This document shows positions 2,341 to 51,000 of a stretch of 64,000 nucleotides of DNA, piece by piece. A program made the translations under genes and the position numbers. Position 1 is the stretch's first letter; each line of letters opens with the position of its first letter. The notes under the pieces are model-generated. The model searched no databases and was not told the origin of the DNA. It saw only the letters and a program-made list of their open reading frames with translations. This stretch comes from Bispira polyomma (Eukaryota), in NCBI GenBank assembly GCA_965649765.1, contig OZ287752.1, forward strand, positions 66,836,001 to 66,900,000, given 5' to 3'.

Positions 2341-2677
2341 TGAAGTAATTCACGCGGAAGGGGCCGCCTTTTCTATTGGCTATAGCTCAGCAACCACTGG
2401 GTGGATTCTCTTCAAATTTGGCACATGTATGCAGTAGCCCTGGGAAAAATTTTGAATATAGTGTCATTACATTTCGACCAATCAGAGAAGTCACATGACC
2501 CAAAACACGTTTTTTAAAGGGGTGTGCTTGTCCGGATGATAACTTAAAAAGTGCCGTACCTATTCTCACAAAATTTGACAAGTAGGTTTCTTATATAGAT
2601 GTCCGGAACTAGATAACTTTGATAAGTGATCTGATACAAAATAGCTGACACGATTTTTCGAAACAAAGAAAATGATA

Positions 2678-7917: not shown

Positions 7918-8043
7918 ACAGTAGGAAAAGATATGTGCTTAGTGTTAAACAGTAGGAAAATATATGTGCTTAGTGTTAAACAGTAGGAAAAGATATGTGC
8001 TTAGTGTTAAACAGTAGGAAAAGATATGTGCTTAGTGTTAAAC
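7918..8043 (+). repeat. 31-bp minisatellite, 4 copies
   Basis: ACAGTAGGAAAAGATATGTGCTTAGTGTTAA repeated with period 31. Confidence 0.95.
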
Positions 8044-8110
8044 TTTGCACTTAACACTAACAGTTGGCAGTCTTAAATATTTTAGACATGTAAGTATAAG
8101 TACACATGTA

Positions 8111-13904: not shown

Positions 13905-14511
13905 ACAGCGTTCGGCAAACCGAGTCTATATTGGATATTGTCGGGGTATGATGACGTCATCATTACGTCAAAATACGTCTTCAACACACCATTCTGATTA
14001 TGACGTCACAAGCTAGTTTGTGACGTCATATTAGAGTTACTATATGGAGTATATCAGCCAGAAACGACTCATTTTATAGCTTTGGAAATTGTGTTTATTT
14101 TTAACATAATAACTCTAACTTTATATTTTAAAGTACTAAAGGTAGTGTGCATCCCGAAATAATATATGGAGTATATCAGCCAGAAATGGCCCATTTTATT
14201 GCATGTAATATGTACTTTACTTTAAAATATGGAGTTAGAGCTATTATTTTAAATATATATCCCATTTTTTTAATTTTTAGAAATAATAACCTAACCCTAA
14301 CTTCATATTTAAAAGTCAAGTACACCTTACTCTATATATTAATCCAATCGCCAATTTGCTAGTTCGTGATTAAAATTCCAGGCGAGGTTTTGCAGTCCCT
14401 GACTGCTATCTTCTTGTTTAGGTGTACATTCTTGCCGTTACATGTCAAAACACGTATGATTTTATCCTAACGTAAATCTGTGGATTTAGACTCTCGTATT
14501 TACAAGCACTG

Positions 14512-25200: not shown

Positions 25201-26531
25201 CTGTAACTTCATTCTACATATTTCAACTTTTGCTTTTGTACCGAAGCCAGTGTTGTGAAGTGCTTATTTCATGTGTATAATACGGTTGCATTTAAAATTG
25301 TATTATGAACATTATTGTAATTATCTTTAAGTATAGATATGAAAATTAAGTGGAGATACTATATTTAATGATAAAGGGAATAACCAAAATTAGTTAAAGT
25401 GAAAATGTTTTTTAATTAAAGTATAGGTAAAGTTTACAACAAAGTTTAGATATAAAGCGAGGACATAGGCTTTTGTAAATGAGATGTTGGCCAGTGAAGG
25501 GAAATATACGTTGGAAGTGTTGGAGGACACTGAAACAATGAAATTGCATGTTAAAGATATATAAAATATTGTTTTGAAATTACATGCAAATTAGGGGGAT
25601 TGTGAAATATGATCTGACGTATCACCCTAGGACCGACCATATCGGCAATAGGATCTGACGGATCTGGACCCTTGTCCCTCAGGATCAAACCTCTCATAAT
25701 CAAGGTCGGGACTGCTATGCCAATGCTATCTGGCCCTATAAATTCCCCTTTTGAGCCCTAAAACTCAATTATTGTTGAGTAGAAAATTGAGTAGAAATGC
25801 CAGCAATCGATAAGAGAGAATATATGAGGCTAGCTGTCTTTTTCTTTTTTTTAATTACAAATATGCTTCTTCATGCTGCTACCGCAACAGGAAAGGCCCA
25901 AGGCTCAGGCTCGTGCAAGATGAGAGAAATTAAACCCACCCGTTGAGGCCCCCAGGAGATGGTCCAGCCTCCAATAATATGCCCTATCCACTTGGTCAAG
26001 CCCTGGATCGGTAGACCCTTCTGATATTACTTAACCTTAATGCCAGAGTTAAGGGAAGGGGATGGACCTGCATACAGGAACTCATTCAGGTTGATTCCAG
26101 ATCTATTTCTGGAAATCTAAGAGAGGATCACACCCCATGTTGAAAGACGAGCCTGAAATGCCACAGTAGCTGTAACTAAAAAAAGGCCCACCCAAATAAT
26201 CTAAAAACTTTTCAAAACTGTTTGTTGTTACCCCTCACCCCAACCCTATCAGATCTCATAAATTGCACTTTATAAGGTTCCATACATCCCCCATCCATAC
26301 ATGTAATATTATGGGGCCAACCATTGATAACATAATAGGTTTGAACCCAAAATAAATAATTTTATACTCGGACACATACACAGAAGGATGAAATCCCTTT
26401 TTGAAATAGATTTTAACCGAAGGCCTTCCACTGACATGAAAACTCCCTACTGTGCCCCTCCCCCCTAATAATATAATCTAAAGATTCCCCAGCAATAGAT
26501 AGGTTAATGTGCCATTAATTGTCAAAGATCA

Positions 26532-26720
26532 TGGGTTCAAACCCTGTTATTGGTGTGACCACTTGTTTGAGAAAGGGACTGGATTTAAACCCTAACAGTG
26601 GTGTGACCACTTGTTTGGGAAAGGGACTGGGCCGAAAACCTGTTAATGGTGTGACCACTTGTTGAGGAAAGGGACTGGGTTCAAACCCTGTCAGTGGAGT
26701 GACTACTTGTTTGGAAAAGG
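26532..26720 (+). repeat. 48-bp minisatellite, 4 copies
   Basis: TGGGTTCAAACCCTGTTATTGGTGTGACCACTTGTTTGAGAAAGGGAC-like units with period 48. Confidence 0.85.
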
Positions 26721-28174: not shown

Positions 28175-31100
28175 TAGGGGAATAAATATGAAACAAGGGA
28201 AAGCCTTGGCACACAAGTATGTCTTAAGTTTGATTCTGAAGGATGACAAGGTAGGGGGACCGCAAATTTCAGCAGACTGTTCTGTAGTTTTATTGCACTG
28301 TAAAAAAAAAAATTTTTGGATTGATAAATTGAAGGTGAGTAGACTGGAATCTGAAGAAAAACCTTATCAGGATTATTGTGCCTTGACCGGGCTTGACACG
28401 TATATCGAGACAAATATTGGCTGAAATAACATGGGAGTCATGTGTGTACAAATGGTTGTAAAATATGATAATTTAAATGTTTTGTAACTATTGTGGCTAC
28501 TGTATTTTGTATATACCAAAAAGGAAGTTTCAGTAGTCCAGCCTACTGCTGACAAGAGCATTACCGATCGTGGTAGCAATACTCTTGAATGCTGGGTAGC
28601 CAACCCGGGGGCTAGTAAGGTCAGTACTACACCTTAAACACACCAAACTTGTATCTTGTTAGTTACAGATGACCCCTCTCCTGATTGGCTAGCAGTTGGC
28701 CCACATATTATTTCCTGCTTAAACCACATAATCAGCATTATAAAATATGAAAATGAAGGGGCAATATGCCATTTTACTTCATAAGAATTTCAATTTGTTA
28801 CTGATTGATTAATAATTAACTTTTCATTTACATGTTTTCATCTTATATGGTTATGTTTATGTGCTACAGAAAAGACAGTTCTACCCTACTGTGAGGAAAG
28901 AAAACAGGATTCACGATTCTTACTTTGTCAAACAGAAGGCTTTGACATATGCGAATGCTGCTTTACATGTTTGGCTAAGGGCTGTTCTCACTTTAATTCT
29001 GGTGGTTTATCAATTCACAAATCAAAATTACAAGTTAGGTCATACACTGTGTGCTTCTCTTATAATTTCAGATGGCTCCTAGAAAATACTTTTTATGCAA
29101 ATCGTGTAACACAAACCATACAAAACCCATAGACGATGGGTGTCCTTATCTTTTAGACGAGGATAATAGTGACAATGGTGAAACTAGTGACATTTCTGCG
29201 CAAGAAGAAAATCTTAAAATCTTGCAAGAACTCAGACAATTGAACTGTCACATGTCAGCTGTGGAAGAGAAAGTGAACATGGCTCAGTTAGCCATATCCA
29301 GTGCAAATGCTAGCCCCTTTGGAGCAGAAGGATTATCCACGAATGCAACCGTGGCCTGTGCAGCAGCCATCATCCCGGTGCTATGTCAACAACAACTCCC
29401 TAGTCCAGGGTCAAGTCAACTGACTGGCCGAATTGAAGATCTTCTGGTTCCTTCCCTGATGACGTTAAAGACCTCTGAGCACCTACAGCGTGCAGCGGAC
29501 TGCAGATTACAAGAGCTGGCAAATTTGAATGAACAAGGTAATCAAAAATCTTAAAGTGGTTGCTTTGAAACTGTCTGGGTAAAGAAAAAGGTTCCATGGC
29601 CACAAAATCATGTTCTTGGTGGTCAAAACAAAAGTTGTTCCTCGTATGATAGCTTAACTCAGTGGGTCTTAAGTTTCTGTGCCATTGTAAGAGAAGAAAA
29701 AAAAATAGTAATAACAGGGATGCAATGCTTTAATATATGCAAGACCTCATGGAGGACCCACATAATTTCTCCTGGAGTGCTGCCAAAGGCCAAAGGCACG
29801 CGGTTCTGCTGTGCAGAATGGAGGAGGGGAAAGTCACCTGGCAGGATACTGCCAAAATTGACCGCTTAAGAAGGGCTCATGCTCAAAAAGTAATTAGCAA
29901 TAATTATTCAGGTTCTTTCTCTACCACGCTGTGCTCAGCTAAAAACATAGCATCCATAAAATTATAGACAGAGTTTTTCCAAAACCTAAATTTGGTTCCA
30001 AAAATTCTTGCCCACCTTTAATGGTGTAGCATTTTTCAATTATGCCCCTGTTACATACCAGGTGGAACTGAATGCATGTTTGCAGGGTCTAGGAGCTAGA
30101 TATGGCAACCACGTTTTCACTAAAATATCCAATTAAGCTTTCAAAACTACACAATTGTTCATTCAGAGATGATAAACATCCTAGTGGCAGTAAGAGTCTG
30201 GAAACAGCTTTTAGATTTTGGTACACTGTGACAATCAGGCAGTAGTTCATATCCTAAATTCTGGAAAAATTTATGACCTCACCCTTGCTGCGATGGCTAG
30301 AAATATATTCATGGAGACTGCACAGGCAGATATTGAACTAAAGACGGTACTTATTTTAGGCAAAAATAACTGTACAGCTGACTTGCTATCTAGGTGGCAA
30401 ATAACTATAAATAATCCTGACAAATTAAAGTAATTAATAGCCAACCCAGAATGGTTATCAGTGAGTGATGACATATTGGACATAAATTGGTCCATCTAAA
30501 ATATACTTTCAGGTCTCAACGGGTGGGTTGCAAAATTAGCATCTCAAGCAGCCATTAGAGCACAGCAAGCTTTTCGCCCTTCAACGAAAAAGTTATATGC
30601 ATCAATGTTTACGGTATTCCTGGCTTTCTGTTGCTTTGCAAACCTAGATATAACAAATACAACCACCCCTATACTTTTGGCTTTTATAGAATGTTTAGTG
30701 GCCAATAAGACCACCCACACATCCATTGCAAACTACTTATCAGCCAGAAAAGCAAATATGTCAATATATAGGCTGGATGTTTCAATTTTTGATGACCAAA
30801 GAATCAGATATTTTCAGAAAGCACTGATATTGCAAAAGCCATTTAGAGTCAAGATAAATGCTATAATTGATATTGAATAACTTACAAAAATTTAGTTAGT
30901 CTGTGATTCCATGTATATGGGTCAAGTATATAAGGCAGCCTATTTATTGGCCTTCTACTTCTTCCTCCATATTTCAAACTTAGTCCCCCACTCAAAAACG
31001 TCATTTTCACTACTTCACCAGTTGGCTAGGGCAGACGAATTATTCACCCCCATGGTGCTCAAATTATAATAAAATGGACGAAGACGCTCTATTCAAGGGA

Positions 31101-32850
31101 TCATGTCAAAGATATCAAAATTCCATCCCTTCCCTGCACACAGATTTGCCCGGTGGCAGCTCTGCAAGTCCTTCTAGCTGTCACACCGGGTTCCAAAAAC
31201 AAACCACTGTTTTAGATAAAGCTAAATGCAAATTGGGTCCCTCTTACAGACTCGGGTATCAAAAGGATCTAAAAATAATTCTGACTAGGCTTGAACTTAA
31301 AGATGCAAACATTACTTTTCACTCCTTTAGAAGGTCGGGGGCCACCCTGGCTTTTAATTCACATGTCCCGATTCAGGCAATCCAGAGCCAGGGGATCTAT
31401 TCCTCTGACTGTGTATGGAGATATATAACCCAAAATCATGAGGCCTCAGACCAGGCAGCCCTTGCCTTCCAAGCTAGATTGTCCCCTCCTACTACTTCCT
31501 AGTTGGGCCTTGGTGCTTTTTCATTCAACTATATATTTTACATCATATTTTTACACTTAGTCAAATCTTAAGGCCACCTTAATTCTAAACAATTTCAATA
31601 CAGTAATCTTAACTATGCTAACCCTAAAGAGACTCAATCTTAAAATCTATGGTTACCTTAATCTTAGTGTATGTAAAAACTTTACTCTTATAAAAGTAAA
31701 ACTTAATGTCAGTATTAGTAAACCTTAACTTAAATGTATGGTAATTCTTAGTATAAGGTGGACTTATCTTTTATTTTACAATCGTTAATGTTTTTACAAT
31801 CTGTACATAGCTTAGAATAGAAATTAAAATATATATCCCAACTGTCTATTACTTGTAAAACAACAATCTAGCAAATCCCAATCCACAATCACTAAGGTAC
31901 GAGGTACTGTAGATGTCTTCTGATCTTCGAAGAACTCTCAGATTTCTAACAACTTTTAATGAAAAGAGCATATTTCCTGATATATGTTGGGTTTTTGAGC
32001 CGAATAGAATAAACTCTGTCATATCGGGATTCAGCTTTAATTTATTGGAAAGCATCCAATCTTGAACATCAATAAGACACTGTTTCAGACTATTAAAGGC
32101 CACAGAGGGATCATCTGAGGATAGATGGACGTATAAGTGTGTATCATCAGCATAAAATTTGTATTTGATGGATTTATATTTATCAATTATATTGCTTATT
32201 GGGGTGGTGTACAGAGAGAACAGAACTAGCTCCAACACAGACCCCTGAGGGACACCGTATTCTAATTTAAATGGATCAGAAATAGATTTTACAATCTTCA
32301 CAGCTCAGTATCTGTTTGTAAGATAGGACAGAAACCAATTAAGGACAACACCCCTAAAATCAAACCACGAGGACAAACAATCCAGAAGAGTACTATGATC
32401 AATGATGTCAAAAGCTGTCGATAGATATTTTTTTAATGATTATAGAGCATTTTCTGTAACCACTATGAAAAAGGCTGACTGGTAGTAATTAACGAGGCCA
32501 TTTGTGTCCAAATGTCACTTAATCTGTGCAGCAATAACTCTATTGACTAATTTAGAAATGAAACTTAGTCCAGAGACAAGTCTGTAGTTTTTGAAATCAT
32601 CTTTCATCAGATTCGGTTTTTTGATCAAAAGAGCAACAAGAGCCTTTTTAAAGCGATCAGGTACAGTACCTTCTGCCATTGTTATGTGGATGAGTTTTTT
32701 AAAGGATGAAAGTAATATCTCAATGCACTCCTTCACCAATGATGTACGCCATAGATCCAGCATACAGGACTTGGTTGGAGATCCCTTGACAAATTTAAAT
32801 CCCTCATCCTGTTTAGCCATTAGTTCCTGTATATGAGACATTACAATTTG
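28175..32850 (-). mobile_element. Degenerate L2-clade LINE split by an Ngaro insertion (parts 28175-28589 and 31910-32850)
   Basis: RT motifs (NYRLVSGLSFISKL, GVPQGSVL, FYADDT) in 31910-32850; NALVSSRLDY and SFRIKLKTYL in 28175-28589. Joining 31910 to 28589 restores in-frame RHL-FKS. Confidence 0.82.
28590..31909 (+). mobile_element. Internally deleted Ngaro-type YR retrotransposon (RT missing, single B repeat)
   Basis: gag from 29072 (CKSCNTNHTKPIDDGC Zn motif), RNase H remnant 29970-30499 (HCDNQAVV, ADLLSRW), YR 30513-31502 (FHSFRRSGAT, CVWRYI). Ends TG...ACTG with no TSD. Confidence 0.85.
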
Positions 32851-34949
32851 TTCATCATAACTCTTGTTCCATATTTATGCCATGTATGATCATAGCCATC
32901 TAGATATCTCAGTCGTTGAAATCATTTGAAATTGTATCCAAACTCTGGCCAATTTAGGTCGAAACATCAAAAATGATGTCATAGTCTCACAGAGCAAGAT
33001 AGAGAAATGCCATGTTCATGGAACAAATGAAACTGTGGTGGGCTGACGCCTCGGCGACAGCCCCTTCAGTTCTGGTACCAGGCCATTGGGGCCAACTAGG
33101 CCACCTGAGGTCATCTGGACAACTAAAGGGTTTGGCGCCCAGCAAGCGCCATCATTAAAATTTTAACATTTGAGAAAGCAAGAGTGTTAAACAACTTGGA
33201 GCTTTTACTCCCCTGCTGCTTCTAATAAGGTTCTGGTTTTAATAAGAAAATGGAGAGCATGGACCAATATGTGCAGGATACAGAGGCGGCGCTTTTCTAA
33301 CCCAGCGCCAGTAAGGCATGTATAACACCACCTACTCTGTTAAATATCAATGTTGCTAATACAGTATAACTAAACCAGTGGTTGAGGCTGTTGTGTTTTC
33401 GTTAGAATTTCTACGTACAAACGACAGTGTACAATCTCAGGTTGACTAATGTTTAGTACAACTACAACAACTCACTAAATTGACCAGAGGTAAACTAAAG
33501 TCCCAGTGTGGTGGTACTGAGGCCCATAATAAAAGAAGTGTGCACTGGCTGCAAAATTTCGTGTTATCAGGGGTTAAAAAGACTAGGCCCATGTACAATG
33601 ATCTTTCACTTGTCCAATTTACCTCTGAAGTACGGGAGGTAATGCTTGAATATTTAGCAAATTTGATGGACGACGCCCATGATTTCTCCCAGGAGGCCGC
33701 TAAAGCTTCGAATGCTATTTTGCTTACAAATATGGAACTTGACTGCCTTAAATGGACGGACGTGGAAAAGGTAGACAGTGTACGTCAGGCTCATGCCCAG
33801 TGACATATTCCCCCCAGTGCCAATGGAAAACTGTGATGGATTGCACCACATAAATTGTGTCCAAAGAAAGGGGCTACAAAAAACTAAGTGGCCACTGCAG
33901 AAATGCAGTGGCTGTAAATAGGCAGATTAATAAAGTTTATTCTAGGACAGTGGAACATGGTTGTAAACGGGGAAAATTGTACTTCCCGTGTTTACACAAT
34001 GGAATCTGTTGAACATTGATAAAAATAAACAAAAAACATTCACCAAGGTGAAGGGATTTAACACAAGGGAAGGGGTCACCAGTAAATGTGTTGAAAACAC
34101 TGTGCTTCCTCTCAATCAGCCTGACAAAGCAGGGTTTTCCAACCAGAACAGAAGAGGTAATACTTGGCGTGCCAGAAACAATTCAGTTGACTCAAGGGTT
34201 TTCCCTCCTGCCTCTGTAACAAAAAGTGTAAACTCGGGTCGGGGTAACAATAGAAGTAAGGGCAGTGCCTTGTAAGTACCTCTCCACAACAAGTTTGCTT
34301 CTTTAACTTTTTGTGTGGAGGATGGGGATGTTAATGACTGTGTGAAAGGGGAGAGGGGGTTTTGGAAAAGGCGTTAAAACATAACCAAGGCCCAACCAAC
34401 CGTAGTAATGACACCAATGTTTCTAAAAAGGCTACCAGTCCTCCCGAACAATTAACAAAGACTGATTTGACCCACTGTGATGACAAGTATGCGTTGAATA
34501 TGCCTAAATGTCCCGACAAAAAGCAACATATAAATAATGCTAAAGAATATGATACTTACAAGATGTGGGTTGTGCAAAACTATGGGAAGTTTGAGTTTAT
34601 TCCACTCACCTGTTGAGAGGTACCGTGGTCGACAACTCTGGTGTTAAGTTGCCACTACACACACTAACCCTACACATTTTGGATGGGCACCCTAATTATA
34701 GAGGCCTCCAGTTACCGGTCATTAAGTCGGAACTTATTAACTATTCATCAGCTATTCACTATCCGAAACATGTGTGCCACTATCTGCGAGAAGAATGTCA
34801 ATTGGGGGCCATGTATGGGCCGTTTGCTGCACCCCTACTTGACAAGTTATACACCTCCCCTTTCATGACTAGGGACAAGTCGAGATCCAATAATCATAAT
34901 TGTAATTGTAATTAGACTTTTATTGCGCTTAATCTCCCCTTAACAAAGG

Positions 34950-35102
34950 TGTAAGGCAGGGCCCCAGCTCTGGCGCTCTCAGTTCTGGGGGACCAGTCTT
35001 AGTCTTCACGCTTCATTGCTTGCGGGCTGTATATAAGGCAGCTTCATTCAAACGTCCCGCCATTTATAACAATAGTGTTCACAGAATAACAACTTTGGAA
35101 CG
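34950..35102 (+). repeat. Terminal repeat A1 (153 bp)
   Basis: TGTAAGGCAGGG...CTTTGGAACG; differs from the downstream A copies at 1-2 positions. Confidence 0.95.
35030..35065 (+). promoter_or_regulatory. Putative TATA box and initiator in repeat A (repeated in every A copy)
   Basis: TATATAAG at 35030-35037 with Inr-like CCATTT about 30 nt downstream, upstream of the gag ATG at 35188. Confidence 0.55.
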
Positions 35103-35187: not shown

Positions 35188-36004
35188 ATGCCTCCTGTGT
35201 ATCATTGTTCGAGGTGTCAAGAAAAGCATGAAAGGCCCGTTGGCAATGCTTGTACTCTGGAAGCCGTGTCTGTGGAAGCCACTGTTAGTGCTGTCTCTGC
35301 TAAGGATTCATCCACTCTCGCTTCAAAGTCAGGTTCAGATATTGTTTCTAGTAAAATTTTACTGCAACTGCAGTCCATGGCGCAGATGATGGAACACATG
35401 GACCAGAGAGTTCAGCAGACAGAGGCAGCACTGGCGGCGGACGTCCACAACAAGAATCAGGCTAGTATTGTTTCAAATTCTGTTGTTAAGAGTAGTTCTG
35501 TGAGCACCGATACCAGTGAAGTTTTATCCACTGAAACCGTAGTTCCGAATATAGACTTTTTACGCAGGAACAGTCAAATTCAAAGCCAAGTTGAATTAAG
35601 GCTGGCGGAGTTAAAACAGCTAAATGAAAACCCACAGCAAGGTAAACTAAAGTCACAAAGGGGAGGGGACGTTGATATTTTGGTCAAATGCGTCGTAGAA
35701 TGGCCCCAAAACCATGTCTTGACGGGCAGTTGTAAATCAAGGCCCACATATGATGACTTATCAGTCAACCAATGGGTATGTGGAAAAAGTCGAATGAGAT
35801 TAGGGAAATTATGCTAGATTATATGGCTAATTTGATGGAAGATGCAGAGGATTTCTCTTGGGAGTCGGCAAAAGCTTGCCATGCGGTTGTGCTCACCCAC
35901 ATGGAAATGGGGAAGGTTAAATGGTCAGAGGTCAGAGGTGTTTGCGAAACCTGTGGGGGTCACACAAATCCAGTGCATGTAACAAGAAGAGTCTAAAAAA
36001 CTAA
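35188..36004 (+). pseudogene. gag-like ORF1 (N-terminal CxxC-H-C Zn motif, coiled coil); C-terminal half disrupted
   Basis: MPPVYHCSRCQEKHERPVGNAC...GKLKSQRGG...WPQNHVL...YDDL; frameshift/deletion near 35780 and deletion near 35930 relative to siblings; ends AAA AAC TAA. Confidence 0.85.
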
Positions 36005-38421
36005 GGGGCCACTGCAATTCTGAAGTGGAAAATAGCAAAGACAAAAAAGAACTTTTTATAACTCAGAATTTAGTAATTTGGAGTTATTTGCTAAAGATGT
36101 AAGGGGTAAAATGCTCACTTACAATAAAGGTAAACGTGCATGCTGTTCATACAGCGACGCATTACAAAATATAAATAGCACAAGAAAACAGGTCGTTGTA
36201 AATAAAAGTAAAAGTGTCAAAGTGTGCAAACCTGTAAATAAGTGTCGTGTTTACTCTGTCCCGGCCACGCAAAACAAACAAAAGACCTGTGAGCGGGGGC
36301 AAAGTAAATACACCAAGTAAACAATGCTTGGACGTACCAAGCCTGTTAGTGAATGTCTCCCATATAAATCACTAGTGAATAATAGTGTCGACCGAGCTGC
36401 CTTGTGGCATAACAGATTCCAACCCCTCTACCAAACCATTGTTGAACTCAACAATGGGGAGGTCGAGGATAGTGTGAACAAAAACGAGAGTGTTAATGAC
36501 AAGCCACAACAAGGTGCGAAAAAAAGGCGATTGATTAAAGACAATGCTGGGAATCAGGGTAATGACAGAAATGTCAACACAAATCCAACATATAATTCAG
36601 TTGCCCCTTCAGACAAGTACGCTTTGGGGCTTAAGCAAAAACGCAATAAACGGGAGTTGCTAACTAAAGCCCGGAACGATGAGACGTACAAGGCGTGGCA
36701 TGAGCAAAATGATGTCGACTATGGATTCATTCCACTTAACACGTTAGGATGCAAAATTTAAGATAGGGGGGCGAAAAATCATGGCCTAGATACCTTCCAA
36801 ATGCATGCTAAATTAAGAGCTGATGGCAGACACAATTATAAGGGTCTCCAACTTGTGGTCGAATCGCAATTAAATGCCGAGAAGTGGCAAGATTACCTCA
36901 CTAAGTATTGGGACTGGCAACTGCCCCTGCTCGTTAAGTACGGTTTCCCGTTAGACGTATGTCGAGGAAAAGTTAGTCAGTCGGGCAATTGTAACCATAG
37001 TTCGGCGGAAACTTTTCCAGAACATGTGGAGATGTATCTGAATGAGGAATGTAACTTTGGGGCTATATTAGGGCCCTTCAAGGAGCCCCCTATTAGGGAC
37101 TTGCATTGTTCGCCGATGATGACACGTGAGAAGTCCAGCTCGGCTAATGGGAGAGTAATAGTCGATTTGAGTTGGCCACATGGTCATTCGGTTAACGCAG
37201 GTGCTTCTGCTAACTCCTACCTTGACACTGGTGTTATTCTATCATATCCTTCCATTGATAACATTACTACTGAAGTAACCAGATTGGGTAGAGGATGTCA
37301 TATCTATAAAATTGATGTAAGTAGGGCCTTTAGGCACGTTCCCATAGATCCGGGTGACATCAATCTACTTGGCCTAAAATGGAAAGACTTCTACGTCGAT
37401 AAATGTCTTCCCTTCAGGTATCAGAATTGGAGTACTATTTTCCAGCGTCTTTCTGATGCTGTAAGATTTATAATGAAGGCGGAGGGATACAAAGTAGACA
37501 ACTATATAGACGATTTTTTGACCGTATCGTTGCCAAGTAAAATAACAGCCAGTTACGAACGTCTTCAGGCCTTGCTCAAGGAGCTCGGCCTCACGGTCAG
37601 CCAGAAAAAGTTGGTTCCCCCCAGCACACGGGTAATATGCCTGGGCATACTAATAGATACTGAAAGTTATACCACCTCTATCCCGGACGAAAAAATGCAG
37701 GAAATTACAGACAAGTGTGACATGTGGCAAGGGAAAGAATTTTGTACTAAAAAAGAATTACAGTCCTTATTGGCCTCCCTCTTATATGTAGCCAAATGCA
37801 TTAAATATGCTAGAGTCTTTTTGAACCGTATGTTGCAATTCCTCAGAGACAATTATAGCAAAAGTCGGTTAATAGTCACTGAAGACTTCAACAGGGATTT
37901 AAATTGGTTTAGAACCTTCATTAGGCATTTCAATGGCGTGTTTTTTTTCACATAAGAGTACCCATACACAGGTAGAATTAGATTCATATCTAACCGGAAT
38001 GGGCAGCATCTGTGGCAATGATGTGTACAAACTTAAAGTACCCTCACACATGACCAGTGACAATATAGCGTCGCTTGAAATGATCAACATACTCGTTGCC
38101 CTCAAGCTATGGTCCAACGTATGGCAAGGCAAAAAAGTTATTTTTAAATGTGACAATCAGGAAGTGATCAGTGTCATGGAAACTGGGCGTACTCAAGATC
38201 CTGTTCCGGCTGCCTACAGCAGAAATATTTACATGTGGGCTAGCAAATTTGATATAGACATAAGAGTTATTCATATTTTGGGTGTGAAGAACAAGGTTGC
38301 AGACCTTCTCTCACGTTGGGATAAAGTGAATAATAATGAATACTTACTTGCTCAATGGGTGGGGTCGGTTAACTGGCTGCACACAGATGCCACCCTCCTA
38401 GACATTGACTACACAATTTAA
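36001..38421 (+). pseudogene. pol-like ORF2: N-terminal linker, reverse transcriptase, RNase H
   Basis: RVIVDLSWP, KIDVSRAF, YIDD, CLGILID; RNase H LEMINI, CDN, ADLLSRW. Stops at 36318 and 36759, frameshifts near 36050 and in the T-run at ~37945. Confidence 0.9.
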
Positions 38422-38456
38422 AGATGTTGTATCTATCCTGTGGTACTATGTTTCAG

Positions 38457-39445
38457 GAATGCATCCTTTGGACTCCCTGTTCACAAATAGAGCCTGCAAG
38501 AGACTGCATTTTGCTTTTGCTGAATCAACAGCCAGGGCCTATGATGCCATGTTTAGACTCTTCCTGGCCTTTGGAGCTTTCATGCAATGGCCTCTATATC
38601 AGGTGATTGTATTCAGGATTTTGTCTTTTTTAGAGTTTCTGACTTTTAATCATATGTCTGCTGCTCAAATTGCAAATCATCTTTCGGCTGTTAAAGCGAA
38701 ATGCATTCTCTTTCATGTAAATGTGGACTGCTTTGCAGATCCACATATATCTTATTATAGTAGGGCTCTTGCTATTAATAAGCCTTTACAAGCCAAACTT
38801 AAAACATTGTTTGATATTCCTTTGCTAACTGCATTGGTTGCCAAATGTGACAACACGTATATGGGACAGATCTTTAAGGCTGTTTATCTGACCAGTTTTT
38901 TCAGTTTCTTGAGGCTTTCCAATTTGTGCCCACACTCTGTGGCTGGGTTCTCTCCATTGAAGCATTTGGCCAGAGGGGATGTGCTTTTTAAGCCTGGGTA
39001 CATAACTCTTTTAGTAAAATGGTCTAAGACCATGCAGGTGAACAATCAAATTAAACTGTTAAACATTCCAGTCCTGCAGAACTCATGCCTATGTCCTGTG
39101 GCTGCTCTGAAGAATGTGCTGGCCCTTACCCCTGGTGGCCCTAACATGCCTCTTTTTCAGTATAAGTTAGGTGGTGCTTGGGTTCCGTTGACAGACACCA
39201 GGGTTCGGCGTCACTTGAAGAATGTGCTGCAGCTCCTGGGCTGTGGTCATGCTAACCTTACTTTCCATGCGTTCCGGCGTTCAGGTGCCACGTTTGCCTT
39301 TAACAATAATGTCAACATACAGGACATTCAGCGGCATGGCACCTGGACGTCGGACTGCGTCTGGAGGTACATCACAGATTCGGCCCAGACGGGGTCCCAG
39401 GTCGCTGATTGCTTCAAGGGTGCGCTTCAGCCTACTCCTAGGTAA
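38457..39445 (+). CDS. Tyrosine recombinase (intact frame; probably second exon of a spliced GagN-YR mRNA)
   Basis: Open to TAA at 39443-39445 with catalytic R (FLRLSN), K (WSKT), HxxR (FHAFRRSGA), H/W (HGTW) and Y (VWRYI); preceded by acceptor TTTCAG ending at 38456; first ATG at 38459. Confidence 0.9.
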
Positions 39446-39455
39446 CTCTGGTGTT

Positions 39456-40285
39456 TGGTGGTCTGACTTCTATAGGTCACCTGTGCAAAAAGAATATATA
39501 AATGTTATGGTATAATAAACATAAATTTGGACAGTTCACAACCCCCTTGTCCTTGGGCATAAGGTCACCTTATATCTCGGTACATTATGTACTCTTACAT
39601 AATTTATCTTCCAATCACTTTGCAACCTCCATAGTATGCTTTAAATCAACCTTAAACTCAAGGTAGGGCCAACAGTTCGGGCCCATACTGACTTGAACTC
39701 AAGGTATGTTCATAATTAAGTTCAAATTTAAGTCGGGCTCACTAACGGTGCCCCTTCATTGACATACTCTTGACACATTGGTTGCTAGTCTTAAACTCAA
39801 TTTAGGGCCATCATTAGGCCCCCTCAAAATTCTTTAGTTAAGGTGACCTTAAGTCAACCTTATTGTTATATAAAAACTTAGACTGACTTTACGTTCACCT
39901 TAAACTTTAACTCACTGTAAGGTGACCTTATGCCCCCCAACTATAATCTGAAACTGTACATACTATACCTGTAGAACTAACCATGCTAGTCATTAATAAA
40001 TATTTACCCGCAAGTGTTTTTCTGTGTTGCTAAAGAAATTAGAAAATTATTAAGGTTTCTATTACCAACTTAGACTGACTTTACGTTCACCTTAAACTTT
40101 AACTCACTGTAAGGTGACCTTATGCCCCCCAACTATAATCTGAAACTGTACATACTATACCTGTAGAACTAACCATGCTAGTCATTAATAAATATTTACC
40201 CGCAAGTGTTTTTCTGTGTTGCTAAAGAAATTAGAAAATTATTAAGGTTTCTATTACCAACTTTCCCTTGGCCCACGGGGAACTG
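39456..40285 (+). repeat. Terminal repeat B1 (830 bp = 648-bp B with a 10-bp deletion and a 192-bp internal duplication)
   Basis: Aligns to B copies such as 41191-41838; duplicated block 39875-40066 / 40067-40258. Confidence 0.92.
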
Positions 40286-43200
40286 TGTAAGGCAGGGCCC
40301 CAGCTCTGGCGCTCTCAGTTCTGGGGGACCAGTCTTAATCTTCACGCTTCACTGCTTGCGGGCTGTATATAAGGCAGCTTCATTCAAACGTCCCGCCATT
40401 TATAACAATAGTGTTCACAGAATAACAACTTTGGAACGCCCACCCTCCACTACCCTTTCTTAATTGCTTTTTGTAGTTGTAGGAGTTATCACAGTGGTTG
40501 GACTTGGCGAATTGGGCAGGCTTCCTCGATGGTGAGCCTGGTGTAACCTTGGTTCCCAGGTCTCCACGTCTTTATCACTCCCAGTGGTTCCAGCCGTTTG
40601 TAGATCGCGGTTGTCAGGTTTACCATCACAGGCCAGTGTTCCGGCCTCATGAACGTTCGTGCTGGGACTGGTTCCGATTATGCTGGGATGTGTTTAATGT
40701 TGGGAAGCTGTAAGATATAGTATCACAGATCTGGAAGTACTGCCTTAATTTGCTTTAGTGCCTGTGTTGAATAAATGTGCTTAATGTAATGTTAAAAGTA
40801 AAGATTTTATACAATTAGATTTTAAATGAATAAAGCAGATAAGTTTCAAGTAGTAAATGTGCTGGCTCTTCTCACGCGAGAATTTTGTGTTAAATAAGGG
40901 GCCGTATTGCTCGCCTAGTAGGACTGTTCCTGTAAGCTAGAGTGTGAATTGCTGGCTTTTAGATTAAATGTACAAGATGGCTGTCTTACACCATCGCTGG
41001 GATATTTTTTGGAATGAACTCTTGGTGCAGTCAGTGAGGGCGTGACTGCGGATACCATTTTACCTCGCCAGTAAATTATTTAGTAGTTATTTACTTAGTC
41101 TCTTTAAATTGTTTTATGAACTTTTACACCATGAACTTGTTACAACAAGATTTTTATGTTTTTAATTATCCTTATATATACATATCGCTGTGGTGGTCTG
41201 ATTTCTATAGGTCACCTGTGCAAAAAGAATATATAAATGTTATGGTATAATAAACATAAATTTGGACAGTTCACAACCCCCTTGTCCTTGGGCATAAGGT
41301 CACCTTATATCTCGGTACATTATGTACTCTTACATAATTTATCTTCCAATCACTTCGCAACCTCCATAGTATGCTTTAAATCAACCTTAAACTCAAGGTA
41401 GGGCCAACAGTTCGGGCCCATTTACTTCCATACTGACTTGAACTCAAGGTATGTTCATAATTAAGTTCAAATTTAAGTCGGGCTCACTAACGGTGCCCCT
41501 TCATTGACATACTCTTGACACATTGGTTGCTAGTCTTAAACTCAATTTAGGGCCATCGTTAGGCCCCCTCAAAATTCTTTAGTTAAGGTGACCTTAAGTC
41601 AACCTTATTGTTATATAAAAACTTAGACTGACTTTACGTTCACCTTAAACTTTAACTCACTGTAAGGTGACCTTATGCCCCCCAACTATAATCTGAAACT
41701 GTACATACTATACCTGTAGAACTAACCATGCTAGTCATTAATAAATATTTACCCGCAAGTGTTTTTCTGTGTTGCTAAAGAAATTAGAAAATTATTAAGG
41801 TTTCTATTACCAACTTTCCCTTGGCCCACGGGGAACTGTGTAAGGCAGGGCCCCAGCTCTGGCGCTCTCAGTTCTGGGGGACCAGTCTTAATCTTCACGC
41901 TTCATTGCTTGCGGGCTGTATATAAGGCAGCTTCATTCAAACGTCCCGCCATTTATAACAATAGTGTTCACAGAATAACAACTTTGGAACGCCCACCCTC
42001 CACTACCCTTTCTTAATTGCTTTTTGTAGTTGTAGGAGTTATCACAGTGGTTGGACTTGGCGAATTGGGCAGGCTTCCTCGATGGTGAGCCTGGTGTAAC
42101 CTTGGTTCCCAGGTCTCCACGTCTTTATCACTCCCAGTGGTTCCAGCCGTTTGTAGATCGCGGTTGTCAGGTTTACCATCACAGGCCAGTGTTCCGGCCT
42201 CATGAACGTTCGTGCTGGGACTGGTTCCGATTATGCTGGGATGTGTTTAATGTTGGGAAGCTGTAAGATATAGTATCACAGATCTGGAAGTACTGCCTTA
42301 ATTTGCTTTAGTGCCTGTGTTGAATAAATGTGCTTAATGTAATGTTAAAAGTAAAGATTTTATACAATTAGATTTTAAATGAATAAAGCAGATAAGTTTC
42401 AAGTAGTAAATGTGCTGGCTCTTCTCACGCGAGAATTTTGTGTTAAATAAGGGGCCGTATTGCTCGCCTAGTAGGACTGTTCCTGTAAGCTAGAGTGTGA
42501 ATTGCTGGCTTTTAGATTAAATGTACAAGATGGCTGTCTTACACCATCGCTGGGGTATTTTTTGGAATGAACTCTTGGTGCAGTCAGTGAGGGCGTGACT
42601 GCGGATACCATTTTACCTCGCCAGTAAATTATTTAGTAGTTATTTACTTAGTCTCTTTAAATTGTTTTATGAACTTTTACACCATGAACTTGTTACAACA
42701 AGATTTTTATGTTTTTAATTATCCTTATATATACATATCGCTGTGGTGGTCTGATTTCTATAGGTCACCTGTGCAAAAAGAATATATAAATGTTATGGTA
42801 TAATAAACATAAATTTGGACAGTTCACAACCCCCTTGTCCTTGGGCATAAGGTCACCTTATATCTCGGTACATTATGTACTCTTACATAATTTATCTTCC
42901 AATCACTTCGCAACCTCCAGAGTATGCTTTAAATCAACCTTAAACTCAAGGTAGGGCCAACAGTTCGGGCCCATTTACTTCCATACTGACTTGAACTCAA
43001 GGTATGTTCATAATTAAGTTCAAATTTAAGTCGGGCTCACTAACGGTGCCCCTTCATTGGCATACTCTTGACACATTGGTTGCTAGTCTTAAACTTAATT
43101 TAGGGCCATCGTTAGGCCCCCTCAAAATTCTTTAGTTAAGGTGACCTTAAGTCAACCTTATTGTTATGTAAAAACTTAGACTGACTTTACGTTCACCTTA

Positions 43201-46200
43201 AACTTTAACTCACTGTAAGGTGACCTTATGCCCCCCAACTATAATCTGAAACTGTACATACTATACCTGTAGAACTAACCATGCTAGTCATTAATAAATA
43301 TTTACCCGCAAGTGTTTTTCTGTGTTGCTAAAGAAATTAGAAAATTATTAAGGTTTCTATTACCAACTTTCCCTTGGCCCACGGGGAACTGTGTAAGGCA
43401 GGGCCCCAGCTCTGGCGCTCTCAGTTCTGGGGGACCAGTCTTAATCTTCACGCTTCATTGCTTGCGGGCTGTATATAAGGCAGCTTCATTCAAACGTCCC
43501 GCCATTTATAACAATAGTGTTCACAGAATAACAACTTTGGAACGCCCACCCTCCACTACCCTTTCTTAATTGCTTTTTGTAGTTGTAGGAGTTATCACAG
43601 TGGTTGGACTTGGCGAATTGGGCAGGCTTCCTCGATGGTGAGCCTGGTGTAACCTTGGTTCCCAGGTCTCCACGTCTTTATCACTCCCAGTGGTTCCAGC
43701 CGTTTGTAGATCGCGGTTGTCAGGTTTACCATCACAGGCCAGTGTTCCGGCCTCATGAACGTTCGTGCTGGGACTGGTTCCGATTATGCTGGGATGTGTT
43801 TAATGTTGGGAAGCTGTAAGATATAGTATCACAGATCTGGAAGTACTGCCTTAATTTGCTTTAGTGCCTGTGTTGAATAAATGTGCTTAATGTAATGTTA
43901 AAAGTAAAGATTTTATACAATTAGATTTTAAATGAATAAAGCAGATAAGTTTCAAGTAGTAAATGTGCTGGCTCTTCTCACGCGAGAATTTTGTGTTAAA
44001 TAAGGGGCCGTATTGCTCGCCTAGTAGGACTGTTCCTGTAAGCTAGAGTGTGAATTGCTGGCTTTTAGATTAAATGTACAAGATGGCTGTCTTACACCAT
44101 CGCTGGGGTATTTTTTGGAATGAACTCTTGGTGCAGTCAGTGAGGGCGTGACTGCGGATACCATTTTACCTCGCCAGTAAATTATTTAGTAGTTATTTAC
44201 TTAGTCTCTTTAAATTGTTTTATGAACTTTTACACCATGAACTTGTTACAACAAGATTTTTATGTTTTTAATTATCCTTATATATACATATCGCTGTGGT
44301 GGTCTGATTTCTATAGGTCACCTGTGCAAAAAGAATATATAAATGTTATGGTATAATAAACATAAATTTGGACAGTTCACAACCCCCTTGTCCTTGGGCA
44401 TAAGGTCACCTTATATCTCGGTACATTATGTACTCTTACATAATTTATCTTCCAATCACTTCGCAACCTCCAGAGTATGCTTTAAATCAACCTTAAACTC
44501 AAGGTAGGGCCAACAGTTCGGGCCCATTTACTTCCATACTGACTTGAACTCAAGGTATGTTCATAATTAAGTTCAAATTTAAGTCGGGCTCACTAACGGT
44601 GCCCCTTCATTGGCATACTCTTGACACATTGGTTGCTAGTCTTAAACTTAATTTAGGGCCATCGTTAGGCCCCCTCAAAATTCTTTAGTTAAGGTGACCT
44701 TAAGTCAACCTTATTGTTATGTAAAAACTTAGACTGACTTTACGTTCACCTTAAACTTTAACTCACTGTAAGGTGACCTTATGCCCCCCAACTATAATCT
44801 GAAACTGTACATACTATACCTGTAGAACTAACCATGCTAGTCATTAATAAATATTTACCCGCAAGTGTTTTTCTGTGTTGCTAAAGAAATTAGAAAATTA
44901 TTAAGGTTTCTATTACCAACTTTCCCTTGGCCCACGGGGAACTGTGTAAGGCAGGGCCCCAGCTCTGGCGCTCTCAGTTCTGGGGGACCAGTCTTAATCT
45001 TCACGCTTCATTGCTTGCGGGCTGTATATAAGGCAGCTTCATTCAAACGTCCCGCCATTTATAACAATAGTGTTCACAGAATAACAACTTTGGAACGCCC
45101 ACCCTCCACTACCCTTTCTTAATTGCTTTTTGTAGTTGTAGGAGTTATCACAGTGGTTGGACTTGGCGAATTGGGCAGGCTTCCTCGATGGTGAGCCTGG
45201 TGTAACCTTGGTTCCCAGGTCTCCACGTCTTTATCACTCCCAGTGGTTCCAGCCGTTTGTAGATCGCGGTTGTCAGGTTTACCATCACAGGCCAGTGTTC
45301 CGGCCTCATGAACGTTCGTGCTGGGACTGGTTCCGATTATGCTGGGATGTGTTTAATGTTGGGAAGCTGTAAGATATAGTATCACAGATCTGGAAGTACT
45401 GCCTTAATTTGCTTTAGTGCCTGTGTTGAATAAATGTGCTTAATGTAATGTTAAAAGTAAAGATTTTATACAATTAGATTTTAAATGAATAAAGCAGATA
45501 AGTTTCAAGTAGTAAATGTGCTGGCTCTTCTCACGCGAGAATTTTGTGTTAAATAAGGGGCCGTATTGCTCGCCTAGTAGGACTGTTCCTGTAAGCTAGA
45601 GTGTGAATTGCTGGCTTTTAGATTAAATGTACAAGATGGCTGTCTTACACCATCGCTGGGGTATTTTTTGGAATGAACTCTTGGTGCAGTCAGTGAGGGC
45701 GTGACTGCGGATACCATTTTACCTCGCCAGTAAATTATTTAGTAGTTATTTACTTAGTCTCTTTAAATTGTTTTATGAACTTTTACACCATGAACTTGTT
45801 ACAACAAGATTTTTATGTTTTTAATTATCCTTATATATACATATCGCTGTGGTGGTCTGATTTCTATAGGTCACCTGTGCAAAAAGAATATATAAATGTT
45901 ATGGTATAATAAACATAAATTTGGACAGTTCACAACCCCCTTGTCCTTGGGCATAAGGTCACCTTATATCTCGGTACATTATGTACTCTTACATAATTTA
46001 TCTTCCAATCACTTCGCAACCTCCAGAGTATGCTTTAAATCAACCTTAAACTCAAGGTAGGGCCAACAGTTCGGGCCCATTTACTTCCATACTGACTTGA
46101 ACTCAAGGTATGTTCATAATTAAGTTCAAATTTAAGTCGGGCTCACTAACGGTGCCCCTTCATTGGCATACTCTTGACACATTGGTTGCTAGTCTTAAAC

Positions 46201-48050
46201 TTAATTTAGGGCCATCGTTAGGCCCCCTCAAAATTCTTTAGTTAAGGTGACCTTAAGTCAACCTTATTGTTATGTAAAAACTTAGACTGACTTTACGTTC
46301 ACCTTAAACTTTAACTCACTGTAAGGTGACCTTATGCCCCCCAACTATAATCTGAAACTGTACATACTATACCTGTAGAACTAACCATGCTAGTCATTAA
46401 TAAATATTTACCCGCAAGTGTTTTTCTGTGTTGCTAAAGAAATTAGAAAATTATTAAGGTTTCTATTACCAACTTTCCCTTGGCCCACGGGGAACTGTGT
46501 AAGGCAGGGCCCCAGCTCTGGCGCTCTCAGTTCTGGGGGACCAGTCTTAATCTTCACGCTTCATTGCTTGCGGGCTGTATATAAGGCAGCTTCATTCAAA
46601 CGTCCCGCCATTTATAACAATAGTGTTCACAGAATAACAACTTTGGAACGCCCACCCTCCACTACCCTTTCTTAATTGCTTTTTGTAGTTGTAGGAGTTA
46701 TCACAGTGGTTGGACTTGGCGAATTGGGCAGGCTTCCTCGATGGTGAGCCTGGTGTAACCTTGGTTCCCAGGTCTCCACGTCTTTATCACTCCCAGTGGT
46801 TCCAGCCGTTTGTAGATCGCGGTTGTCAGGTTTACCATCACAGGCCAGTGTTCCGGCCTCATGAACGTTCGTGCTGGGACTGGTTCCGATTATGCTGGGA
46901 TGTGTTTAATGTTGGGAAGCTGTAAGATATAGTATCACAGATCTGGAAGTACTGCCTTAATTTGCTTTAGTGCCTGTGTTGAATAAATGTGCTTAATGTA
47001 ATGTTAAAAGTAAAGATTTTATACAATTAGATTTTAAATGAATAAAGCAGATAAGTTTCAAGTAGTAAATGTGCTGGCTCTTCTCACGCGAGAATTTTGT
47101 GTTAAATAAGGGGCCGTATTGCTCGCCTAGTAGGACTGTTCCTGTAAGCTAGAGTGTGAATTGCTGGCTTTTAGATTAAATGTACAAGATGGCTGTCTTA
47201 CACCATCGCTGGGGTATTTTTTGGAATGAACTCTTGGTGCAGTCAGTGAGGGCGTGACTGCGGATACCATTTTACCTCGCCAGTAAATTATTTAGTAGTT
47301 ATTTACTTAGTCTCTTTAAATTGTTTTATGAACTTTTACACCATGAACTTGTTACAACAAGATTTTTATGTTTTTAATTATCCTTATATATACATATCGC
47401 TGTGGTGGTCTGATTTCTATAGGTCACCTGTGCAAAAAGAATATATAAATGTTATGGTATAATAAACATAAATTTGGACAGTTCACAACCCCCTTGTCCT
47501 TGGGCATAAGGTCACCTTATATCTCGGTACATTATGTACTCTTACATAATTTATCTTCCAATCACTTCGCAACCTCCAGAGTATGCTTTAAATCAACCTT
47601 AAACTCAAGGTAGGGCCAACAGTTCGGGCCCATTTACTTCCATACTGACTTGAACTCAAGGTATGTTCATAATTAAGTTCAAATTTAAGTCGGGCTCACT
47701 AACGGTGCCCCTTCATTGGCATACTCTTGACACATTGGTTGCTAGTCTTAAACTTAATTTAGGGCCATCGTTAGGCCCCCTCAAAATTCTTTAGTTAAGG
47801 TGACCTTAAGTCAACCTTATTGTTATGTAAAAACTTAGACTGACTTTACGTTCACCTTAAACTTTAACTCACTGTAAGGTGACCTTATGCCCCCCAACTA
47901 TAATCTGAAACTGTACATACTATACCTGTAGAACTAACCATGCTAGTCATTAATAAATATTTACCCGCAAGTGTTTTTCTGTGTTGCTAAAGAAATTAGA
48001 AAATTATTAAGGTTTCTATTACCAACTTTCCCTTGGCCCACGGGGAATTG
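40286..48050 (+). repeat. Tandem array of five 1553-bp units, each A (153) + spacer C (752) + B (648)
   Basis: Units start at 40286, 41839, 43392, 44945, 46498; identical small ORFs recur every 1553 bp in the ORF track. Confidence 0.97.
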
Positions 48051-51000
48051 GGACTCTAAGGCGCACCAGCACAAGAGACAGTTATCCAATTTCCAAAATC
48101 AAGGGACAGAAAAAGGGTCAGCAACATAGAGCGCGCCGGGGGATGATTGAGACTAAGGTGGATATGCTTTAGTGTACCAATGGGTTTTAAGCTTCTTTCT
48201 AAAACAGGCTAGTGAGGGGGAAGCACGAATCACATCAGGAAGACCATTCAAAACAATGGGAGCATCAAAAGCAAAGCTGTGACCAAACTGTTTAACCGAC
48301 TTTTGAGTAGATGGGTGGAACTTCGGAACAAGGAAATTACTACCACTCTGACTACGTCTGGTATTGTAGGAACTACTGTAAGTGGAAAGATATGGGGCAA
48401 AATACTTTGGAAACCCAGTGTGGAGAAACTTATAAACAAGTGTAGCTGTCTTAAACACTGAACGCTGTTCAACAGGGAGCCAATGCAATTTCTTAAGAAC
48501 AGGAGTTATACTAGTGTATCGACTGGTGTTTGACACAATTCTAGCTGCACTATTTTGAATGCATTGTAATTTGCGTAAATTAAACTTTGAGAGACTCCTG
48601 AAAAGTGAATTGCAGTAATCCAGTCTACTACTGACAAAGGCATTGGCCACAAGTATAGAAGCATCATAAGTGAGAAACCGTCTGACACGTCTAAAGTCAC
48701 GAAGTTGCATAAAACAGCTTTTGCAGACACTCTGAACGTGTTTAGAGAAAGAAAAGTCAAAGTCAAACCATACACCCAGGTTCTTGACAGAATCAGCTGG
48801 ACTGAAAGGGCTTGAACCGTAATCATAGGGTCATAATACACCTCAACTGGCCTGAAGGCCATTCCGTCAATGCTGCTGTATGTCCTAACTCATATTTGAA
48901 CTCATATTTTACTCACTCTACCCTCAATTGATACAATGACAAGCCAAATCAGAGCCATGGGAAAGGGTTCCTTGATTTTCAAAGTGGACATAAGCTGTGC
49001 ATTCCGACAAGTGACCATGGACCCAAAAGAGGTTACTTACTGCGACTATATTGGGATGGGTACTATGTGGACGGATCGCTGCCCTTCGGCTAAAAACCCG
49101 AATCCGCCATCTTCCAGCGAATTTCAGATGGCATACAGTATATTATGAAAGGTGAAGATCACCACATTACAAATTATATTGAAGATCTCCTATGTTGCTG
49201 GACTCCTACAAAAATATACAAAACATATTATCGCCAACAGAGCCTGTTAACTGAATAAGGTCTTACCTTGAATGACAAAAAACTAGTTCCTCCGGTGACC
49301 CAGGTTACTTGTCTAGGTATTAATACTGTTACAGTTGAATTTACTACCTCAATACCAGAGGAAAAACTCGCAAATGTTCAAGCTATGGTGATACTTGGGC
49401 TGATAAAAAATACTGCACAAAGAGAGAAGTCCAGTGTTTACTGGGTTTACTTTTGTATGTGTCAAAGTGTGTAAAGTACTCCAGGTTTTTCCTAAATAGG
49501 ATGCTACAGCTTTTTAGAAGCAATCATAAAAGCAAATCATTCAAAATTTCCCCTGAATTTCGACAGGATTATAAATGGTTCAAGACTTTTATGGGTTTAT
49601 GGTAGCCAGGTGTACACACTTCCCATACCTCCTGCACCATCAGAACATTGCCTTTCTTGAAATATTAAATATTTTGGTCGCCTTGAGACTATGGGCTCAT
49701 CAGTGTAAAGGTCCTGTTAAAGTGTGATAACCAGGCTGTGGTTAGTGTCCTAATGGCAGGACTCGGGACCCTGCGTTGGTCTTATGCTCCCGAAATATTT
49801 TCATGGTGGCTAGCCACTATGATGTTGAAATACAAGTCATTCATATACTAGGGGACCATAACACAACTGCTGACATGCTGTCCAGATGGCCAACTCCAGC
49901 CAGGATAAAATTCGCTTGCATAGTCTTGTAGGCCAGGTCCTGTGATGTCCAGTGACCGAAAAACAACTGTTACTTAATTGAGAGCTAGAGCTGATATCAT
50001 GACACATCCGGATAAAGCCGTGTTAGTCATCAAATGGTCTAAAACCATGCAAAACAACAAACAAATTAAATTAATAACAGTTCCACGTTTGTCAGGCTCA
50101 CCATTATGCTCTGTTAGGGAAATGGAGGACATTTTAGCACTCACCCCCTCTGGTGATAATTTACGTCTGTTCCAGTTCAAAGTCAATCACAACTGGTTCC
50201 CCTTAACAGACTCAATGGCACATTGTCACTTTGAAAACATCTTCACCAGGTGACAACTAAAAAGCCTCGGGACTTACCTTTCACGCTTTTCGTAATTCAG
50301 GTACCACATTCACTTGCAACCATAATGTCAGCATTCAAAATATCCCAAAACATGGCACCTGGACCTCGGATTGAGTGTGAAGGTACGTCACCGATACTGT
50401 CAATGCTGGCCACCAAGTGGCTGAAACCTTCAGACAACAATTGCCCCCCCCCCCCCTCCCTTTAATCCTACTGCTTTTGGGTTTGGGTGTTTAATAGTTA
50501 TTTCCAAGGCTTACATGTATGTTAACTCTAACTTTATCTTTATCATTTAGTTAACTTGCTAGTTCAAACTTAGAGTCTGCTGAACTATAAAATAGTAATT
50601 TAACTTTTCAGTATAAAGCAACTATAACTTTAACTTTTCACAAGTATTACTTTAACTGTTAACTATTGCTTTAACTTTTCGCAAGTATTGCTTGGCTGTG
50701 TGTTTAATGCTTATACTTGACTGTTTCGAGTTAACAAATTGTATTGTAATGGTAACTTGTGTTAAAACTTAAGATTAATCCTTTGGAATGTAAGGTCACC
50801 TTTCTGAAAATGAGTGACTAAGGGCTACTTAAAGTAACATGGACAATGAAATTTAGTTATTAAGGTGACCTCACCTTAAAATTATCTATTAAGGCTAAAA
50901 CATTTATTTTTGGTGGCCCTAAGTCAACAAAGTTTGGGCAAAAAAATTAATTTTACTCTACTGTGACCTTAAGTCGCTTTGTACATAGTCATAGCCTAAC

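Follow-up and report, generated by a model that had tools for sequence, protein, structure and literature searches.

The -1 frameshift signal, a slippery heptamer followed by a stable structure, is itself of a textbook type, and one such heptamer, A_AAA_AAC, is also used by MMTV. The relevant passages of PMC3835772 give 6-9 nt as the usual spacers of -1 signals and list HTLV, BLV, IAP and astroviruses as users of A_AAA_AAC with a spacer of 6-8 nt, and a part of PMC5009743 places this heptamer among the shiftiest on mammalian ribosomes and describes animal Ty3/Gypsy retrotransposons as using -1 gag-pol heptamers. The Ngaro elements (order DIRS) possess gag, RT/RNase H and tyrosine recombinase (YR) genes and split direct repeats (sections of PMC8547959, PMC9210276, PMC3266345). 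On the translation of the ATG-less pol and recombinase ORFs of tyrosine-recombinase retrotransposons, the only statement found is a guess on the pol-to-YR overlap, which in Ngaro is said to be in the -1 frame, with a frameshift suggested (Poulter and Butler, 2015, as quoted in PMC13003380). No gag-pol slippery site for DIRS or Ngaro was found in the literature searched (supplements, Repbase and key reviews lay outside its scope, and an earlier mention is possible), nor do the portions consulted of PMC3783388, PMC6681497, PMC3266345, PMC9210276, PMC8547959, and PMC5009743 contain a DIRS/Ngaro gag-pol frameshift. 

The window analyzed here is a stretch of 64,000 nt of Bispira polyomma (GCA_965649765.1, contig OZ287752.1, positions 66,836,001-66,900,000, forward strand), and it contains three junction sites (Table 1). 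All three are located exactly where a sequence-only reading of the window had placed them, and they are the sole matches in the window to the heptamer followed by TAA and the start of the stem. The peptide pattern L[RS][GA]HC that was noted in the -1 frame is found in all three, as KKLSGHC, KKLRGHC, and KKLRAHC, and the approximately 160 open codons claimed for the copy at 53.7 kb correspond to an ORF at 53749-54258, with 162 codons past the heptamer. Other parts of that reading need amendment. Gag was said to end with the heptamer and TAA in every copy, but in copy 3 an earlier in-frame TAA overlaps the first A of the heptamer, so that gag stops one codon upstream of the slip site. The hairpin is positioned 5-7 nt past the heptamer as described, but the stem of the focal copy 2 folds no better than its shuffled versions (-6.8 kcal/mol, z -0.5), while the hairpin of a relative reaches -13.5 kcal/mol, z -3.9. 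The -1 frame of copy 2, which had been called young, is indeed broken, by a 7-nt deletion at ~36046 and not near 36058. This copy is ~93-98% identical to relatives of its subfamily and carries at least seven lesions, including a gag frameshift near 35784, a stop at 36759, a frameshift near 37945, and deletions of 186 nt (~35932), 1 nt (~35956), 7 nt (~36046), and 90 nt (~36226), with ORF1 disrupted by frameshifts and by the 186-nt deletion. Gag and pol are not both intact in any of the three copies of the window, which are dead relics that retain the signal. Of 30 focal-subfamily copies (L288-L317), six, like copy 2, have a 1-nt indel at or close to one and the same G-run, ~40 nt upstream of the heptamer.

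Table 1. Features of the three focal-family copies and of the sister-family element, in window positions.
Feature	Position	Strand	Remarks
Copy 1 slippery heptamer A_AAA_AAC and gag stop TAA	33878-33887	+	gag remnant from ~33363, several stops
Copy 1 hairpin, 10 bp, GAAA loop	33890-33913	+	5 nt past heptamer; -18.7 kcal/mol, z -4.6
Copy 2 terminal repeat A1	34949-35102	+	98.7% identical to A2, 40285-40438
Copy 2 gag-like ORF1	35188-36004	+	N-terminal CxxC..H..C, predicted coiled coil, C-terminal zinc knuckles
Copy 2 phase-1 splice-donor-like AAG/GTAAAC in gag	35639-35647	+	counterparts at 33490, 53240; use putative
Copy 2 (focal) heptamer A_AAA_AAC and TAA	35995-36004	+	
Copy 2 hairpin	36009-36028	+	one copy-specific mismatch weakens the stem
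Copy 2 pol (variable N-terminal part, RT, RNase H)	35995-38421	+	putative -1 entry; breaks at ~36046, 36759, ~37945
Copy 2 T-rich acceptor-like site (AG 38455-38456), then YR ORF	38445-39445	+	HAFRR, WRY motifs
Copy 2 3' split repeats B1-A2-spacer-B2	39456-48131	+	expanded to tandem array, 1553-bp units
Copy 3 gag, pol, YR	53032-57457	+	all decayed; pol with 530-bp internal duplication
Copy 3 in-frame TAA 53768-53770, overlapping heptamer 53770-53776, then TAA 53777-53779	53768-53779	+	
Copy 3 hairpin	53782-53805	+	one mismatch; -15.2 kcal/mol, z -2.5
Sister-family element (~58.5-64 kb), gag end GTT TAA C	63322-63328	-	pol onward in +1

Judged by ORF order, repeats, and the missing methyltransferase, the element that hosts this junction is a Ngaro-like tyrosine-recombinase retrotransposon. 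Its three ORFs encode a gag-like protein (ORF1), RT together with RNase H (pol), and a YR, the latter recognized through a match to PF00589 that is below the cut-off (E 0.004) along with HxxR and Tyr motifs, with no match to a DDE integrase. Split direct repeats in the order A1-ORFs-B1-A2-spacer-B2 were identified by self-BLAST of L063, L067, L086, L121, and copy 2 of the window; inverted terminal repeats of the DIRS1 type are absent, the terminal repeats of the focal element being direct. No Pfam match to a methyltransferase domain follows RNase H, pol stopping soon after it, and protease, DDE integrase, and env gave no matches in the focal element. ORF order, split repeats (A1...B1-A2-B2), and the missing methyltransferase are shared with Ngaro; unlike in Ngaro, the focal family has a unique spacer of 570-750 nt between A2 and B2, and its YR frame varies, with an acceptor-like site upstream, whereas the Ngaro YR as quoted overlaps pol in a fixed -1 frame. 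The structural model of Gag (pLDDT 72, pTM 0.42) combines a coiled coil with a helical core, and it has no clear match in PDB (best Z 5.0), so the label 'gag' is based on the position and the zinc knuckles; an atlas search led to clusters without names. The tandem units at the 3' end of copy 2 (39875-48131) are 1553 bp long and 99-100% identical to each other, and the 530-bp tandem duplication of copy 3 is in the RT (54832-55661).

Genome-wide, the junction motif has 276 exact matches versus none for the reversed pattern, and it is no chance product. Besides the three window copies, the set of 154 copies analyzed further comprises 151 of 200 genomic stretches, those in which the pattern is located where it should be. 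This set is biased, since most of the full-length copies were selected by the motif itself, and copies were therefore also drawn by protein, with a pol query excluding the heptamer and with a gag query. The heptamer is intact in 30/30 and 34/40 of the loci selected by pol (64/70 together) and in 29/30 of those selected by gag, and the hairpin in 26 of the 28 gag-selected loci in which both arms are readable. In an alignment of 26 clade representatives, column identity is 92-100% within the motif but mostly 30-60% in its flanks; copy selection had made use of the 5' part, not of the 3' arm. The first A of the heptamer falls on the wobble position of a codon that varies (GCA, TCA, ACA, CTA, TTA, GTA, GGA, GAA), and the gag stop varies between TAA and TGA, a change that is silent in the -1 frame. 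The conservation of the motif bears on the proposal that it is a functionless inherited sequence, retained through relatedness of the copies alone. All window copies are dead, as that proposal would have it, and relatives do share sequence by descent, but the contrast between motif and flanks holds across clades whose Gag proteins are 40-63% identical (eight representatives), and the motif is also retained in other assemblies. Conservation over clades so divergent largely refutes this explanation, which we consider the least probable of all.

The position of pol is equally telling. In 18 of the 154 copies pol stays open over at least 750 codons counted from the heptamer, in each case in the -1 frame, and in none of the 154 is there such a frame in frame 0; the lone long pol in +1 in this set carries a 1-nt deletion inside the hairpin. 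Pol in some other frame, or with an ATG of its own, is thus not what the family displays: no ATG is conserved, and the first one is encountered, depending on the clade, at +114, +120, +123, +129, +132, +225, or +663 nt (+36 in one fused copy), and in three copies 221 open codons are free of ATG. Upstream, the -1 frame is closed within 17 codons of the heptamer in 145/154 copies, leaving a short window for the shift. For the 5' part of pol, omega computed from shared variants is 0.27-0.52 in nine clades and 0.81 in one, with too few variants in one more; these values span codons past the first ATG and so are no clean test of the ATG-less stretch. For annotation, this means that the first ATG is not to be taken as the start of pol.

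The same data bear on reinitiation after the gag stop at a nearby pol-frame AUG, or production of pol from a shorter transcript, with the hairpin serving replication or packaging. Some clades do possess a pol-frame AUG 18 nt upstream of the heptamer, and a similar start is seen in four of the Pol homologues in other assemblies. The AUG, however, arises as a side effect of a Cys codon and does not occur in the largest clades, in which the -1 frame opens just 3-4 codons upstream; the three copies with 221 ATG-free codons also speak against such a start, and reinitiation supplies no reason for retention of the heptamer. We regard it as quite improbable.

The reading we favor, and consider likely, is that -1 frameshifting on A_AAA_AAC produces Gag-Pol at this conserved gag/pol junction, as the sequence-only reading had proposed; the -1 position of pol, the lack of a shared start codon, and the conservation of heptamer and hairpin across the family all support it. 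The heptamer conforms to X_XXY_YYZ in the zero frame, and the zero frame leading to it is open in the large young clades, though closed in the 49 copies described below. Most ribosomes would terminate at the adjoining UAA or UGA and release Gag, and a minority, held up by the hairpin located 5-7 nt past the heptamer, would slip back by one base, tandem slippage of tRNA-Lys and tRNA-Asn resulting in the junction X-K-N-L-R-G/A-H-C. What the data show directly is the sequence, the frames, the conservation, and the hairpin potential; that ribosomes slip, that the hairpin promotes this, and any rate of slippage are inferred. Frameshifting in this form would resemble that of HTLV-1/2, BLV, IAP, and astroviruses, with the same heptamer and frame, a stable structure 5-7 nt downstream, and the enzyme ORF in -1; it differs from these in the short hairpin of 8-10 bp with no conserved pseudoknot, in the zero-frame stop that adjoins the heptamer, and in the lack of matches to protease, DDE integrase, or env. 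The likeness to Ty3/Gypsy elements is in a Gag-Pol ratio set by -1 slippage (presumptive for the focal family) in a retrotransposon, but those possess LTRs and a DDE integrase, and the focal element possesses a YR and split repeats. The signal is short, exactly defined, and present in multiple copies, thus suited to one reporter assay, and the frameshift model predicts a junction peptide as well as a spliced recombinase mRNA.

The hairpin follows the heptamer after 5-7 nt and has a stem of 8-10 bp. Its z is at or below -2 in 22/26 clade representatives, and it is among the three most stable of 170 windows in 22/26 of these. In 25 sequences 90% of the stem cells are paired, a score of a kind that relatedness inflates. 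As to covariation, two edge pairs are compensated (G-C/C-G and A-U/G-C swaps), but the seven core pairs are near-invariant, which suggests a sequence-specific role and counts against the favored reading. The frame remains open through the hairpin in -1 in 149/154 copies and in +1 in 100/154. A simple scan of 22 representatives revealed no shared position at which the loop could pair downstream as a conserved pseudoknot.

The recombinase is probably made separately. The frame of YR relative to pol varies between clades, a T-rich tract with YAG follows the pol stop in phase 1 in 27/28 copies (by eye), and gag contains a phase-1 donor, AG/GTAAR, whose GGT is conserved in 65/65 copies versus 43/130 control Gly codons; together these suggest that the YR is probably spliced, from the conserved gag donor to the acceptor behind the pol stop. 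In the window, donor 35642 and acceptor 38456 predict a spliced Gag(N)-recombinase mRNA. The same donor raises the question of whether pol, too, could be spliced. An acceptor of pol's own had been considered as evidence against frameshifting, and a candidate for one is present that the earlier reading missed: the AG in the 3' arm of the hairpin (GCAG/TG, +31 nt from the heptamer), which is matched in phase to the gag donor and would produce an in-frame Gag(N)-Pol, with the hairpin keeping the splice rare and CTAA/CTGA as the branch site. The invariance of the donor and its phase match to a near-invariant AG are in line with this rival, as is the stem core that does not covary. A pyrimidine tract is missing, though (2-4 T in 12 nt), the AG is base-paired, a further AG is present between the putative branch site and the hairpin AG in 100/154 copies, and the donor has a better partner ahead of YR. 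Nor would splicing explain the invariant A_AAA_AAC, the X-K-N termini of Gag, or the -1 frame that is open across the supposed intron (149/154). The sister family (see below) has the donor (9/12) but no such AG (by eye). Among 317 loci and the window, no genomic copy has a deletion precisely matching the hairpin-AG splice, and none has one matching the YR splice either. Logan contigs of three sequencing runs contain no GT..AG joint, an outcome that carries no weight for either splice. Splicing is the main rival, though an unlikely one. Another candidate was rejected: TTTTCCAG, acceptor-like and located at -113 in gag, matches the donor in phase, but the -1 frame from there to the heptamer is closed in 147/154 copies.

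Frameshifting in its simple form does not extend to every lineage. An in-frame TAA immediately 5' of the heptamer closes the zero frame in 49 copies, including copy 3 of the window, from at least five clades (17/17 in the group of copy 3, 11/23 in a second group, and 5/10 in a third). In four such clades, omega for shared pol variants is 0.40, 0.22, 0.12, and 0.13, in all cases below that of singletons (p < 0.01). Pol is thus still under selection in these, and simple -1 slippage at the heptamer provides no explanation for them. An identical shortening recurs outside this genome, Gag ending exactly three residues early in 5/7 and 5/7 complete members of two ENA clusters from another assembly. 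A general mutational tendency beside A-runs was entertained as the cause of the TAA and is unsupported (16/450 versus a background of 3.5%). Candidate explanations are helper copies with recombination, P-site slippage at the stop, or splicing; a part of PMC7192593 describes the DIRS-1 RT as acting in trans. The hairpin-AG splice would account for selection on pol in these lineages, and reinitiation could rescue some of them.

A further comparison is presented by a sister YR family, whose Pol is 36-43% identical and a member of which is located at the end of the window. Its gag ends with GTT-stop in 44/50 loci (L238-L287), with GTT TAA C in 33/50 and GGT-stop in one; TAA, TAG, and TGA are all seen, followed by C, T, G, or A as the fourth base. 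Pol continues in the +1 frame, which two copies keep open over 879 and at least 1168 codons, and no conserved hairpin or ATG is found at this gag/pol junction. In closteroviruses, according to passages of PMC3542737, a GUU_stop_C motif has been proposed to promote +1 P-site slippage. The sister family resembles them in the gag end GUU-UAA/UAG/UGA and in the enzyme ORF in +1, but it is an animal retrotransposon with a varying fourth base, and its +1 shift is putative; the family may allow the little-understood +1 shift at the closterovirus GUU-stop to be examined in a cellular setting. With two related families possessing different recoding-type motifs at the same junction, recoding is the simplest route to pol. 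A broader scenario, which we offer tentatively and hold to be possible rather than probable, is that Ngaro-like elements make three proteins from one RNA by recoding and splicing, that the recoding step has switched between a -1 heptamer-hairpin and a closterovirus-type +1 GUU-stop, and that those lineages in which a stop directly precedes the heptamer represent functional intermediates, entering pol by stop slippage or by splicing at the hairpin.

The signal can also be traced in other assemblies, where it was back-inferred from protein, and the proteins may stem from few assemblies. Of 108 Gag homologues in ENA assemblies, 60 extend over the terminal knuckle; the C-terminus is X-K-N or X-K-N-E/D in 54 of the 60, X being S, A, P, T, or L, each of which can be encoded as NNA. 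In Gag homologues shifted by indels, KT..PLQ.CSG represents the same hairpin read in +1, and KKLxxHCxNAV is present in 4/120 Pol homologues, those called far enough upstream. A protein scan of metagenome and viral collections revealed no relative, and the viral collections contained no motif matches. None of the 22 motif matches in metagenomes aligns with the element by tblastn, and they resemble bacterial terminators; a relaxed pattern retrieved ~94 copies of another repeat, with neither hairpin nor gag; both were rejected. In L269 a YR-family Gag homologue is part of one open frame of at least 1272 codons, which may represent an in-frame gag-pol family or a fusion specific to this copy.

The window contains further repeats. 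Two more decayed fragments of YR elements are located at 29039-31484 and 48806-50434, with at least six such pieces in total. Other RT fragments (PF00078), at 11596-13925 (-) and 31849-32304 (-), derive from other, probably non-LTR, elements, and tandem repeats of ~142, 31, and 48 bp occupy 1627-3563, 7887-8072, and 26519-26710, respectively.
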